Virus genome (UHGV): UHGV-0272165
DNA length: 37,116 nucleotides
DNA from: a virus
Reading direction: 5' to 3' (one strand)
Shown: in pieces, positions 26,794 to 30,348 of the stretch
Layout: each line of letters starts with the position of its first letter
Position numbering within the stretch: the first letter of the stretch is position 1
The notes under the pieces: model-generated
The model's input: only the letters and a program-made list of their open reading frames with translations
The model's database searches: none
Told to the model about the DNA's origin: nothing
Position numbers and translations under genes: made by a program

Positions 26794-27510
26794 ATGGAAA
26801 ATAAAAAATCACTGACGACAGAACAGCTGGAAGACGCTAAGCGGCTTAAGGCTTTGTATGAGTCAAAAAAGAAAGAATTGGGAATAACCCAATACTCAAT
26901 CGCTGATGAACTGGGTATCACCCAAGGAGCGGTAGGGCATTATCTTAATGGCAGAAATGCGCTAAACGTTGAGGTTGCATCTGGTTTTGCACGATTGTTG
27001 CAAGTCTCAATTGCTGATTTTAGCCAGTCAATTGCTGCCAAGGTTGCAGAACAGGCAGAAAGCCTTAAGAGCGATGCCAACGTAAGGTATGCAGGGGAAT
27101 ACAGAGCAGGAAAGAGGTATCCGGTGTTAAGCAGTATCCAGGCTGGCTCGTGGTGTGAAGCATGCGAACCATACACCATTAAAGACATAGATGTTTGGCT
27201 TGAGTCTGACGCGCATATTCAAGGTAATGCGTTCTGGCTTAAAGTGGAAGGTGATTCAATGACGGCACCGGTTGGATTAAGCATTCCAGAGGGAACATTC
27301 GTTCTTTTCGATACCGGAAGGGAGGCGATCAACGGCAGCTTGGTCATAGCAAAACTTTCTGACTCTAACGAAGCAACATTCAAGAAGCTGATAATCGACG
27401 GCGGAAATAAATACCTCAAGGGACTTAATCCTGCATGGCCTCTCGTGCCAATCAATGGAAACTGCAAGATTATAGGCGTTGCAATTGAGACAAAACTCAG
27501 ACTGGTTTGA
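26794..27510 (+). CDS. cI: CI-type repressor (HTH plus LexA-like S24 peptidase domain)
   Basis: HTH (QYSIADELGITQGAVGHYLNG) and S24 motifs (VEGDSMTAP, FKKL); divergent from cro across the operators. Confidence 0.9.
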   Translation: MENKKSLTTEQLEDAKRLKALYESKKKELGITQYSIADELGITQGAVGHYLNGRNALNVEVASGFARLLQVSIADFSQSIAAKVAEQAESLKSDANVRYAGEYRAGKRYPVLSSIQAGSWCEACEPYTIKDIDVWLESDAHIQGNAFWLKVEGDSMTAPVGLSIPEGTFVLFDTGREAINGSLVIAKLSDSNEATFKKLIIDGGNKYLKGLNPAWPLVPINGNCKIIGVAIETKLRLV

Positions 27511-27527
27511 TCACGCAAGGGGCGAAT

Positions 27528-27896
27528 ATGGTTGGAACCGCTATAGCAAGCTTTTTAGGGATGTTGGCAATATCGACAATTTACTGCTTAGCGCATGCTT
27601 TTATTGCGAAATCTCTATCAGAAAAAATAAGCCAGGCTTGGGCGCATAGATCAGCTCGTTTCATGATTCTGGTGATCATGGCAATACAAGGGATATCTAC
27701 ATTTTTCCTCTATGGATCAAGCTTATACCTATTGTATCAAGGCGCGACATTTACGCCTTACACCAGTGATTACGGAACTCTATACGATGGTAGTGAAGAC
27801 ATCTCTATGGCTTGGATTGTCTTTGGTTTATCTATGGCCGTGTCTGTTGTAGCAGACATCATTAAGGTAATTCTCGTCTTAACCTTCGCTGACTAA
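27528..27896 (+). CDS. Small integral membrane protein (about 3 TM helices) downstream of cI
   Basis: ATG at 27528 with AAGGGG SD, 18 bp after the cI stop, same strand; three hydrophobic segments; clearly lower GC than cI. Confidence 0.6.
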   Translation: MVGTAIASFLGMLAISTIYCLAHAFIAKSLSEKISQAWAHRSARFMILVIMAIQGISTFFLYGSSLYLLYQGATFTPYTSDYGTLYDGSEDISMAWIVFGLSMAVSVVADIIKVILVLTFAD

Positions 27897-27983
27897 CCCA
27901 TAATCCCGGCAGCAATAGCTATCGGGATCCACTTCACATATCCCGCATAAAAAGCACTGAACAAGCAGACACCGAAAAAAATA

Positions 27984-28069
27984 AATATCCTTTGTATTCA
28001 TTTGCTTATCATTATTTCACCAAAAATAAATACCTTGGGTATTTACACAATAAAATACCTACAGTATTC
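27984..28069. promoter_or_regulatory. OL-like operators (AATAC-N5-GTATT palindromes), probable pL region
   Basis: AATACCTTGGGTATT (28030-28044) and AATACCTACAGTATT (28055-28069) share the OR half-sites; weaker third copy AATATCCTTTGTATT (27984-27998). Confidence 0.5.
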
Positions 28070-28116
28070 TTTAGCCATCAGCAGGACGCTGGTAGCCAAA
28101 CGGAACAGATTGGCAG

Positions 28117-28158
28117 GCTCTTTAACATTGATGGGATTGTCCCGCCGAAATGCGGGAA
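28117..28158 (+). promoter_or_regulatory. nutL-like site (boxA GGCTCTTTAACA plus boxB hairpin identical to nutR)
   Basis: Same boxA/boxB as at 26442-26487, reverse complemented, upstream of N. Confidence 0.6.
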
Positions 28159-28515
28159 CTGAGTTTAACCAAACAGGAGGTGCCGTAATGGTGCACTAAC
28201 GCGGTTAGACCGCAGCCGAAAGGCAATGCAGCAGTAATGATGCTGCCCCGAGTCGCGTAATGGCGAGCAGGTTTAGCAGACCGATGTGAGGGTAAATAAG
28301 GGAACATGCTCCGGAAAGGCAGCGCGAATGCCAGACGCGCACCGGTTATCAGCGGCTAATAAGCGACAGAGACTCAAGGGCATGAGCGCGCTCACTGCGA
28401 GAGTGTGAGTCAAAGAGTAGTTGGCTTTGGGGTGACGTGAAGTGCAGCTGCACGACGGCAACCGAAAGATAAGCACCCGGCGCGTCACCGCCAAAGTCAA
28501 TCATCGGAGGTCAAC

Positions 28516-28788
28516 ATGACAGTAGTCATTACATATCTGGCTGACGATAACGCCAGAAATCGCCGCAGAGCACGCAGACAGGCTCAACGTGAACAGGCAA
28601 TGCAAGAACAGCGACTGGCGCGAAAAATTTCGCTAAAGCTCTCTGGTTGCGTCAGAGCAGACAAAGCAGCATCACTCGGAAGCCTTCGCTGCAAGAAGGC
28701 AGATGAATGCAGTGGAAGTATTTGCCTGCCAAACGTAGCTATTTACGCGGCAGGCTACCGGAAATCAAAACAACTGACGGCGAGGTAA
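28516..28788 (+). CDS. N-type antiterminator (P22 gene 24-like)
   Basis: Arg-rich N-terminus (NARNRRRARRQAQREQ) and C-terminal LPNVAIYAAGYRKSKQLTAR matching remembered P22 gp24; follows nutL. Confidence 0.85.
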   Translation: MTVVITYLADDNARNRRRARRQAQREQAMQEQRLARKISLKLSGCVRADKAASLGSLRCKKADECSGSICLPNVAIYAAGYRKSKQLTAR

Positions 28789-28790
28789 TT

Positions 28791-29153
28791 ATGGGTCAGG
28801 AAGAAAAATATGAGCTTAAAAAGCTCATTGAAGAAGACGCCATAGAAGAAATTGCAGCATTAACAACAGCTATAAAGAATATTAGGTATGCGCTAAATAC
28901 GCTTATCTCCTCATGCGACAAAAATAGCAGGGAATTTTTGATACTTGGCGCAGCTCTAGGAATAGTTGATGCGGCAACGCTTCACCTAATTACTCATGAC
29001 GATATTCTTATTGAGCCGTATGAAACATTACTGCTTGTCAGGCAAAAAATGGCTGATGCCGCAGCAAATGGAGACCTTCAACTTTACATCGACTTAAGGA
29101 AAGTATTAAGGCGAATGGTCAGAACTGAAGGAGATATCCCCCTGACAAAATAA
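28791..29153 (+). CDS. Hypothetical soluble protein (120 aa) immediately after N
   Basis: Start at internal Met with GAGG SD 3 nt after the N stop; low GC; helical and acidic; no recognised motif. Confidence 0.5.
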   Translation: MGQEEKYELKKLIEEDAIEEIAALTTAIKNIRYALNTLISSCDKNSREFLILGAALGIVDAATLHLITHDDILIEPYETLLLVRQKMADAAANGDLQLYIDLRKVLRRMVRTEGDIPLTK

Positions 29154-29333
29154 GGGGGCGAGAGGATTTTACTATTTTTCTCGCTGTAGGGGTACACGAG
29201 AACCACCGAGCCTGATGTGGTTAAAAGATAGGCACAATCTTTACTACCGCAAGCCACGCAGTGAAATGGGTGTGGCTTGTGTTGGTCGCCAGAAAATGAA
29301 ATTAGGCAGCAAACCACTTATTTGAGGTGAGAT

Positions 29334-29420
29334 ATGGAAGAAGAATTTGAAGAGTTCGAAGAGCATCCGCAGGATGTGATGGAGCAATACCAGGACTATC
29401 CTTATGACTACGACTATTGA
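29334..29420 (+). CDS. Possible 28-aa highly acidic micro-protein
   Basis: GAGGTGA SD then ATG; MEEEFEEFEEHPQDVMEQYQDYPYDYDY; overlaps the start of the next ORF. Confidence 0.3.
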   Translation: MEEEFEEFEEHPQDVMEQYQDYPYDYDY

Positions 29421-29604
29421 TAAAAATCAATGGTGTGGACAATTCAAGCGATGCAATGGATGCAAACTGCAATCGGAATGCATGGTTAAGCCTGAAGAAA
29501 TGCTTCCTGTAATGGAGGATGGGAAGTATGTCGATAAATGGGCAATACGAACTACGGCAATGATTGCCAGAGAACTTGGTAAACAGAATAACAAGGCTGC
29601 CTGA
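29404..29604 (+). CDS. Small four-Cys zinc-ribbon-like protein (66 aa)
   Basis: Cys pattern C-x5-C-x2-C-x5-C near the N-terminus. Confidence 0.45.
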   Translation: MTTTIDKNQWCGQFKRCNGCKLQSECMVKPEEMLPVMEDGKYVDKWAIRTTAMIARELGKQNNKAA

Positions 29605-29740
29605 TGGTGGCCTTTATTTTTGGCATAAATAACAGAATAAACACTGCACTGTGTATTCATTCCAACGAGTGAATACACGGAGCAATGTCGCTCGTAACTA
29701 AACAGGAGCCGACTTGTTCTGATTATTGGAAATCTTCTTT

Positions 29741-29768
29741 GCCCTCCAGTGTGAGGGCCTTTTTATAT
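29741..29768 (+). terminator. Intrinsic terminator-like hairpin in the early-left operon
   Basis: GCCCTC-CAGTGTG-AGGGC followed by CTTTTTAT. Confidence 0.45.
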
Positions 29769-29830: not shown

Positions 29831-29965
29831 ATGATGCACTTTCAGCTCGCGGGTAGCGGCGTCATGTCCGCTTTCTACCCGCACGAATCTGAATTATCAC
29901 GCCGAGTTAAACAATTAATCAGAGCAGCAAAGAAACAACTGGAGGCGTTATGCGCAATGAAATAG
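29831..29965 (+). CDS. Hypothetical small protein (44 aa)
   Basis: ATG with AAGGAG SD; the longer ORF-track start lies inside the terminator hairpin. Confidence 0.35.
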   Translation: MMHFQLAGSGVMSAFYPHESELSRRVKQLIRAAKKQLEALCAMK

Positions 29966-30102
29966 CCATTAATCACCAGATGCTTCGTGCTGCACAAAAC
30001 AAAGCAGTAATAGCCCGATTTATTGGTGATTCCAAAATGTGGCTTGAAGCAAATAAAGCGATGAAATCAGCTATCAACCTTCCGTGGTATCGCAGGAAAT
30101 GA
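29950..30102 (+). CDS. Hypothetical small protein (50 aa)
   Basis: GGAGG SD then ATG; hand-translated; below the 60-aa track cutoff. Confidence 0.3.
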   Translation: MRNEIAINHQMLRAAQNKAVIARFIGDSKMWLEANKAMKSAINLPWYRRK

Positions 30103-30177
30103 GTTTTACAGATAACTGGTCAGACGAAGAATTCATTCGTCAGATGAAAGAATTAATCGGTAACGAAGGAGATATTC

Positions 30178-30348
30178 ATGTCACTTGCAACCACAGTGAA
30201 GGAGAGCAAGTTACAGAGACGCATGTACACGCAGCAGGCGTTAATGTATCGCCAGAAGGGAGATCGTGAAGGTGTTCGCGTATTTTTAAATGCGGCAAAG
30301 ACTGAAGTATTAAATCAGCGTTATTTCCTTGGGCCATGTCCATTCTGA
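30178..30348 (+). CDS. Hypothetical small protein (56 aa)
   Basis: Strong SD (AAGGAG, 7-nt spacer); alternative to the out-of-frame ORF 30084..30269. Confidence 0.4.
   Translation: MSLATTVKESKLQRRMYTQQALMYRQKGDREGVRVFLNAAKTEVLNQRYFLGPCPF

Follow-up and report, generated by a model that had tools for sequence, protein, structure and literature searches.

Ral of phage lambda accelerates first-strand methylation by type IA restriction-modification (R-M) systems, acting through the HsdM N-domain (PMC12707154). In a host that has no type I restriction, knocking down ral is without effect, but on EcoKI+ hosts the gene becomes limiting and so conditionally essential (PMC10695390). Knock-down of the adjoining orf28, carried out in the host free of type I restriction, showed this gene to be non-essential in lambda (PMC10695390). 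Lambda Ral has 66 amino acids, its gene lies in the pL operon after N and ends at a terminator-like hairpin, and its start is overlapped by orf28, which the lambda RefSeq record places between ral and sieB and annotates as hypothetical. In the literature we found no functional work on orf28, nor on hkaQ, a gene of phage HK620 that is mentioned only as an insertion landmark. Here we describe positions 28791-29604 of the virus genome UHGV-0272165, where hkaQ, orf28 and ral follow each other behind N; the full stretch of 37,116 nucleotides is referred to as the window. By sequence comparison, all three open reading frames (ORFs) of the cluster are genes already annotated in public phage genomes, and the cluster as such was known at the sequence level. 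What is new is modest: orf28 appears to evolve as a coding gene and was never found apart from ral. We consider it likely that the interval is a mosaic pL stretch of a P22/HK620-like coliphage, which joins an HK620-type N-hkaQ module to a lambda/phage-21-type orf28-ral cassette, and that orf28 is both coupled to ral and the source of a peptide partner for Ral.

The gene at 29404-29604 encodes Ral. Its product covers the family profile PF11058 completely (160.7 bits at a cut-off of 25; residues 1-66 on profile positions 1-66; E 6.3e-48), matches phrog_1055, 'restriction alleviation ral' (E 6.7e-49), and is identical to lambda Ral (NP_040622) at 65 of 66 positions, the sole change being Leu34 here for Phe in lambda. 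It also shows the family's size of ~59-67 amino acids, the conserved Cys11/17/20/26 and the C-terminal helix WAIRTT-MI-REL. The cysteines are spaced C-x5-C-x2-C-x5-C, with a single CxxC and not the classical pair of CxxC knuckles. Across a 34-member Ral alignment C11 is invariant, C17, C20 and C26 are conserved in at least 90% of the sequences, and W46, R49, T50, T51, M53, I54, R56 and L58 are invariant. Metal binding by the four conserved cysteines is plausible. The AlphaFold2 model built on these 34 sequences was poor (predicted local distance difference test (pLDDT) 66, predicted template-modelling score (pTM) 0.37, Cys region about 57), the PDB holds no sequence relative of Ral, and a Foldseek search of this weak model against the PDB was empty. 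The family is restricted to Enterobacterales, where it occurs in Escherichia, Salmonella, Citrobacter, Kluyvera, Cronobacter, Providencia, Proteus, Pantoea and Erwinia. From the 98.5% identity to the lambda protein we infer that the Ral of the window would alleviate type IA restriction via enhanced de novo methylation, by which incoming unmodified phage DNA would become modified instead of being cut.

These assignments change an earlier reading of the locus. A first-pass annotation, made from the sequence alone, had placed three unassigned ORFs downstream of N on the + strand, at 28791-29153, 29334-29420 and 29404-29604. The ORFs are indeed there, on that strand and at these positions. They are not unassigned, being annotated publicly as HK620 hkaQ, lambda orf28 and lambda ral, respectively. 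The first-pass annotation also argued that lambda and P22 carry restriction-alleviation genes in this slot, and here it was right: the 66-amino-acid protein, in which it had correctly counted four cysteines (positions 11, 17, 20 and 26), is lambda's Ral. That reading was thus only partly right, since the slot pointed to restriction alleviation and the genes themselves went unrecognised. Its idea that the four-Cys protein is a host-targeting inhibitor holds for the target, a host type IA R-M enzyme (PMC12707154), whose methylation Ral enhances. The Zn-ribbon label found no support in the cysteine spacing or in the weak structure model. The cell-division effect it had considered has no counterpart among the known activities of Ral; the division inhibitor Kil is encoded separately, at 29950-30102.

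Two unrelated prophages carry a putative nucleotide-modification gene of the Nmad5 family just downstream of ral. In E. coli ET245 this gene adjoins ral (L194 2470-3093), and in Providencia it lies beyond a structured RNA element that is described below (L197 3084-3704). Such neighbours hint at a wider anti-restriction neighbourhood around ral.

The gene in front of ral, orf28, encodes the peptide MEEEFEEFEEHPQDVMEQYQDYPYDYDY, as the first-pass annotation had quoted it. Twelve of the 28 residues are D or E and none is basic. The peptide is identical to lambda orf28 (lambdap47, NP_040623, phrog_16060) at 28 of 28 positions, and the three nucleotide differences from lambda, like the four from P22, are all synonymous. 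The good Shine-Dalgarno sequence noted in the first pass is the 7-nucleotide GAGGTGA, whereas that of ral is only AGGA. The reading frame overlaps ral by 17 nucleotides, so that its stop codon lies inside ral, and lambda has the same Shine-Dalgarno sequence and the same overlap. Neither orf28 nor HkaQ matched Pfam, NCBIfam or PADLOC, even at E up to 10. Standard pipelines miss orf28; PGAP, for example, left it uncalled in E. coli ET245.

For the evolutionary comparison, ral loci were gathered from phage records, genome contigs, viral contigs and metagenomes. The Ral scan of the genome collection returned mostly lambda contamination and a single divergent locus, from Kluyvera; the viral and metagenome scans returned almost only near-identical ral copies, and divergent loci were fetched individually. 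Every ral locus that could be evaluated has an ORF resembling orf28 that runs across the ral ATG (196/196, comprising 195 automatic assignments and one Q20L variant missed by the filter). These loci extend from Escherichia to Providencia, Erwinia and Pantoea, with Ral identities down to 61%, and the orf28 reading frame always ends 11-17 nucleotides inside ral. Near-identical copies of lambda ral and orf28 were also seen on short or low-coverage contigs in assemblies of unrelated organisms (Nocardioides, Paenibacillus, Bradyrhizobium, Vibrio and others); these loci (L011-L026, L029-L031, L033) are almost certainly lambda DNA contamination.

Substitutions in orf28 follow a coding pattern. The ratio of non-synonymous to synonymous differences per site (pN/pS) is 0.12-0.15 in comparison with BTP1 and 0.21-0.22 in comparison with Kluyvera, at pS values of 0.45-0.56 and 0.92-0.97, respectively, and in the other two frames every change is non-synonymous. 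Outside the ral overlap, 26 sites segregate among 190 loci, and 17 of them are third codon positions (binomial p 8e-4), a bias that rises to 11 of 12 when only non-singleton sites are counted (p 5e-5). Length variants of 22, 23, 26, 28 and 30 amino acids occur; the indels always comprise whole codons and leave the frame intact, and the motif EF[DE][EQ]HPxD[DV]MxQYQDY[PR]Y is retained across the variants. The Kluyvera peptide, MEDEFDEHPDDDMSRYQDYPYDH, starts with GTG behind the same GAGGTGAG Shine-Dalgarno sequence, and the corresponding peptides are M(NM)EDDIEEFDEHPDDDMSQYQDYPYEYDY in Providencia, MDEEEFDEHPADDMSQYQDYPYEFDY in Pantoea and MEEFDQHPDDDMSQYQDYRYEY in Erwinia. This coding substitution pattern, the frame-preserving indels and the retained start and Shine-Dalgarno sequence mark orf28 as a genuine micro-protein gene, whose predicted product is an acidic and aromatic peptide of 22-30 amino acids. 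The three ORFs of the cluster thus exceed chance expectation, since each has conserved homologues and the smallest of them bears a coding signature. On balance, orf28 appears to be protein-coding and functionally tied to ral.

Some database entries fuse orf28 and Ral into a single protein (P0012 and P0016, 89 amino acids; P0022, 85 amino acids). A frameshift of one nucleotide accounts for P0012, whose 76 member sequences all come from read-assembled data, and an in-frame deletion for P0022. Such entries could reflect faulty assembly or vector variants, or the fusions could be real.

The gene order across the interval, cI, N, hkaQ, orf28, ral, cIII and kil, is of the same class as in lambda, phage 21, P22 and BTP1, where ral likewise belongs to the early-left operon downstream of N. 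The features of the region are as follows.

26794-27510: cI-like repressor gene, upstream of the cluster; a small membrane ORF and then N follow.
28516-28788, + strand: gene for the N antiterminator of HK620 type, 90 amino acids (Pfam PF25694 N_peptide, E 1.8e-15).
28791-29153, + strand: hkaQ, 120 amino acids (phrog_7374 over the full length, E 1.4e-79).
29155-29234: mosaic joint, seen by blastn against HK620; hkaP is missing.
29240-29325, + strand: fossil 3' end of an N gene of phage-21/lambda type (phrog_271, E 3.6e-10).
29334-29420, + strand: orf28, 28 amino acids (phrog_16060 over the full length, E 7.1e-19).
29404-29604, + strand: ral, 66 amino acids (Pfam PF11058, E 6.3e-48).
29593-29614, + strand: terminator-like hairpin with T-run at the ral end (consensus scan).
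29831-29965: cIII, downstream of ral.
29950-30102: kil, division inhibitor gene, separate from ral (profile match).

Further downstream of kil lie genes for an Erf-type recombinase and SSB. Between kil and the recombinase gene are two small + strand ORFs, 30084-30269 and 30178-30348, which overlap each other in different frames and match phrog_2123 and phrog_1723 (label 'recombinase'); one of the two weakly resembles the Erf cofactor Arf.

Alignment to HK620 and phage 21 resolves the interval into two modules. Positions 27502-28159 and 28411-29165, which span the pL region, nutL, N and hkaQ, are HK620-like at 97-98% identity (blastn), and 28411-29165 is 98.3% identical to the N and hkaQ of HK620. 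At the right-hand end of this segment, position 29165 of the window corresponds to HK620 2256, and 29155-29234 aligns to HK620 2790-2869 (locus L001). Since these flanking alignments meet with an 11-base-pair (bp) overlap at 29155-29165, HK620 2257-2789 is absent from the window. The sieB-like convergent gene hkaP is therefore cleanly missing at this joint, and with it the tL1 terminator, which HK620 annotates inside hkaP. Identity to phage 21 is 96% over window positions 29240-29768, a segment that begins with the last 86 nucleotides of the phage 21 N gene and continues through orf28 and ral. This N remnant is contained in a 36-amino-acid ORF (29215-29325) that matches positions 142-171 of 176 of phrog_271, 'anti-termination protein N-like', and whose TGA stop (29325) sits within the orf28 Shine-Dalgarno sequence. 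Relative to HK620, the fossil, orf28 and ral form one clean extra block of 400 bp (29235-29634). In lambda and P22 a deletion of 51-61 bp has shortened the fossil. Apart from this fossil, the window differs from lambda in its P22/HK620-like backbone, in having no sieB between N and ral, and in having no ea10 after ral.

Phage 21, BTP1, Kluyvera and Erwinia retain an intact N-orf28-ral order, in which orf28 begins right at the N stop codon, and the N fossil in the window, lambda and P22 implies that this order is ancestral. The window would thus combine one module, an HK620-type N with hkaQ directly behind it, with a second, an anti-restriction cassette of lambda/phage-21 type that still has the 3' end of a 21-type N gene in front. 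The arrangement is rare, although its component parts are common: at least 80% of this N-to-ral stretch is found in only 2 of 5,426 complete E. coli genomes. A consensus scan for terminators, blind to Rho-dependent ones, found no such site downstream of N on the + strand until the hairpin that closes ral, which is conserved with lambda. Because no such site intervenes and tL1 is absent, N, hkaQ, orf28 and ral may all be immediate-early genes.

The hkaQ gene of the first module starts with an ATG 2 nucleotides after the N stop and has a GAGGT Shine-Dalgarno sequence 5 nucleotides upstream. The match to phrog_7374 covers residues 1-120 of 120. HK620 HkaQ (AAK28865) is 98.9-100% identical over the unmasked 91 residues and occupies the same position, 2 nucleotides behind the same N; HK620, however, lacks ral and has the convergent sieB-like hkaP behind hkaQ, whereas in the window hkaP is deleted and orf28-ral is present. 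The first-pass description of an acidic, helical protein with low guanine-plus-cytosine (GC) content agrees with a GC of 39.7% (47.1% in the window) and with an AlphaFold2 model of four helices (mean pLDDT 77). The acidity is only mild, with 20 D+E, 15 K+R, an isoelectric point (pI) of 5.0 and a net charge of -5. Fold searches with HkaQ gave generic helical matches only and no informative relative.

HkaQ is scarce in reference collections: tblastn located it in only 7 of 50,697 phage records (HK620, HK629, HK630, one Stx1a phage), the exact protein is present on 230 public contigs, and a word-indexed protein search yielded 5 clusters. Exhaustive phmmer over 1.84 billion representatives gave two true relatives, one of 64% identity from Citrobacter freundii and one of 52%, plus fragments. 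Three weak phmmer matches were rejected as spurious, being long repeat proteins aligned only at the HDDxLxE stretch. In the resulting 4-sequence alignment the motifs IxNIRYxL and IVDAxTLHLIxHDDxLxEP are invariant, and the conserved HDD..EP stretch lies in the sole low-confidence loop of the model. In all three lineages hkaQ is the first gene after the N-position gene, with a gap of 2 nucleotides in two of them and of 37 in the third. On Citrobacter-type contigs the 64% homologue lies 2 nucleotides behind a 90-amino-acid N gene and the convergent gene is a GhoS-like ORF, and the 52% relative follows an N-position gene of 123 amino acids, with a twin contig showing the adjoining opposite-strand SieB gene (PF14163). 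A convergent SieB-type gene thus accompanies hkaQ in two of the three lineages, and not in the window. Taken together, hkaQ appears to be an exchangeable early accessory gene, and its product would be an accessory early ('moron') protein that acts on the host or on competing prophages.

The NCBI name for this family, applied even to the 120-amino-acid form, is 'antitermination N domain protein'. We rejected HkaQ as an N protein: it has no N_peptide or N-family match (E up to 10), no NCBIfam match and no arginine-rich N-terminus. The database forms of 148 and 158 amino acids merely add an out-of-frame read through the 3' end of the N gene.

How orf28 serves ral allows several readings. We favour orf28 as probably a translationally coupled companion of Ral, whereby ribosomes that finish orf28 would deliver translation to the weak ral start, the ancestral N-orf28-ral order would have tied Ral synthesis to N, and the orf28 peptide itself would join the basic Ral protein in acting on the restriction enzyme. 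An anti-restriction role of orf28 in this sense is what its obligate linkage to ral suggests. Several points weigh against this reading. No conserved mRNA hairpin was found that would mask the ral start (fold z -1.98, marginal and not conserved), the polymorphism set consists mostly of close relatives, with the strongest dN/dS signals coming from a handful of divergent lineages, and the blindness of the terminator scan to Rho-dependent sites leaves the immediate-early assignment uncertain. The C-terminal YQDYPY codons, moreover, also hold the ral Shine-Dalgarno sequence and ATG and are under a double constraint. Finally, orf28 and its non-coding flank show very strong DNA conservation from lambda to P22, and the CUS-3 annotation has a 'bsq5; boundary sequence' nearby, so that part of the conservation of orf28 could serve recombination or the ral ribosome-binding site. 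Taken to its end, this last argument would leave orf28 without any protein-level selection, its DNA being kept as a recombination boundary sequence and as the ral ribosome-binding site. Lambda, P22 and the window are indeed ~96-98% identical in DNA from the N fossil through orf28 at a Ral protein identity of ~74%, and orf28 is dispensable in lambda. We nevertheless regard such a purely DNA-based explanation as very unlikely, because ORF, start, frame and motif persist in divergent lineages (Ral identity 61-79%) whose DNA has well diverged, pN/pS remains at 0.12-0.22, substitutions in the other frames are non-synonymous and indels are multiples of three. The main rival to a coupled, functional peptide is instead a leader that works only in cis, either as a ribosome-loading ORF or as an arrest-type leader peptide, and whose free product has no function. 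It draws on the same geometry, namely an orf28 stop that always lies 11-17 nucleotides past the ral ATG, a strong orf28 Shine-Dalgarno sequence in front of a weak ral one, and the chain of coupled ORFs that results where orf28 begins at the N stop (phage 21, BTP1, Kluyvera, Erwinia); arrest peptides, too, conserve amino acids. Simple coupling, however, needs no conserved peptide, yet the N-terminal EF[DE][EQ]HPxD[DV]M, far from the ral ribosome-binding site, is kept as amino acids while its codons drift, and the extreme, conserved acidic and aromatic composition resembles that of a binding peptide. We recognised no known arrest motif, though no formal test for one was made, and overall we judge the cis-only leader unlikely, though it is a serious contender. 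A stronger version of the companion role, which we put forward tentatively as a possibility that falls short of probable, makes orf28 an obligate subunit or cofactor of Ral and the two-gene orf28-ral cassette the functional anti-restriction unit. The peptide of 22-30 amino acids would then be required for full modification enhancement, binding either the basic Ral or, on type IA enzymes, the HsdM or the DNA-binding surface. If true, this would explain why ral alone, plasmid-cloned upstream of the Red genes, had 'little to no effect' on recombineering in a study in which Ocr and ArdA worked well (PMC9410887). Such a poor performance is compatible with a missing partner and is no proof of one.

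For HkaQ, the alternative to an exchangeable accessory gene is a function bound to its neighbours, as an Esc-like protector against SieB-type exclusion or as a modulator of N. Its invariable place as the first gene after the N-position gene, the convergent sieB-like gene in HK620 (hkaP) and on the contig of the 52% relative (PF14163), and the NCBI family name could all be read in this way. We consider this improbable, given that hkaQ stands without a sieB-like neighbour in the window and in E. coli ET245, that the convergent gene is GhoS-like instead in Citrobacter-type contigs, that the same N type has unrelated small genes behind it in mEp213 and in the Hafnia phage yong1, and that the NCBI name comes without a hidden Markov model match to N families. 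Very unlikely, in our view, is the proposal, part of which goes back to the first-pass annotation, that HkaQ and/or orf28 are DNA mimics of the Ocr/ArdA kind and that the four-Cys protein is a Zn-ribbon inhibitor, for example of cell division. The slot is right, orf28 is acidic at 12 of 28 positions and sits on ral, and HkaQ would be expressed early, right after N. But for HkaQ, with its pI of 5.0, its net charge of -5, no profile match in Pfam, NCBIfam or PADLOC and only generic helical-bundle folds, the mimic idea fails on charge and fold, and orf28 is far shorter than the known mimics, which are dimeric and have roughly 117-166 amino acids. The four-Cys protein, being Ral, enhances methylation rather than blocking division, for which Kil has a gene of its own.

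The alignment to HK620 also exposed a 251-bp insert at 28160-28410 of the window (core about 28185-28410, + strand), situated between the nutL boxB hairpin (28141-28156) and N, which HK620, phage 21 and E. coli ET245 do not have. Copies of the element were located in 62 of 5,426 E. coli genomes, on more than 120 IMG/VR contigs among the matches listed, and in phages of Escherichia, Hafnia, Klebsiella and Providencia. Its position varies: some copies precede an HK620-type N, others lie between Q and tRNA genes or between lysis genes and terminase, and others follow ral. In all copies with examined context it has the same sense as the flanking genes, and it is unannotated or lies under small 'hypothetical' ORFs. 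In an alignment of 64 representatives below 94% identity, a seven-helix structure specified by hand was 93.3% paired, with compensatory changes in 17 of 30 pairs. The covariation score was 0.162, in comparison with 0.089 in shuffles (0 of 500 reached the observed value) and 0.016-0.045 with slid partners. In many aligned copies the 5' end holds an ATG (in some a TTG, or no start codon) and, after 0-3 further codons, a stop; in the window, the only copy in which the Shine-Dalgarno sequence was examined, this 5' end reads AGGAGG and then ATG GTG CAC TAA (28188-28199). No Rfam 15 family matches the element in the window or in five other copies, no tRNA or tmRNA was found in it, and a sequence-string search of papers was empty. 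The insert looks like an undescribed structured phage RNA, a candidate supported by covariation, and may exceed the gene cluster itself in novelty.

In some relatives, two different N-type genes lie within one early-left operon, as in phage mEp213 (locus L202, 372-704 and 1857-2129) and in locus L004 (1009-1281 and 2652-2948). The second N-type gene of mEp213 is preceded by its own boxB-like hairpin and by a copy of the RNA element.

Our analysis settles the annotation of the cluster, two of whose ORFs are lambda genes and the third a catalogued orphan, HkaQ, with an NCBI name that no profile match supports. It also indicates that orf28, hypothetical in the lambda reference, carries the signature of a real gene, which has stayed unseparated from ral across Enterobacterales. 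This may matter to those who use Ral as a tool, considering that ral alone was of little benefit in one recombineering study.

Lar (RalR) of the Rac prophage is, like Ral, a small protein reported to alleviate type I restriction and to enhance modification; it is not known to be related to Ral in sequence, has since been described as a type I toxin that comes with an antisense RNA, and was not among the Ral homologues that we retrieved. Ocr (T7 gp0.3) and ArdA are very acidic proteins that counter type I R-M systems, and orf28 shares with them its acidity and its anti-type-I neighbourhood. Both are, however, much larger folded dimers, which imitate bent B-DNA and thereby block the enzyme, and we found no sequence or fold relation of either to HkaQ or orf28. 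Unlike this mimicry, Ral, whose gene orf28 has accompanied in every evaluable locus, works by enhancing methylation.

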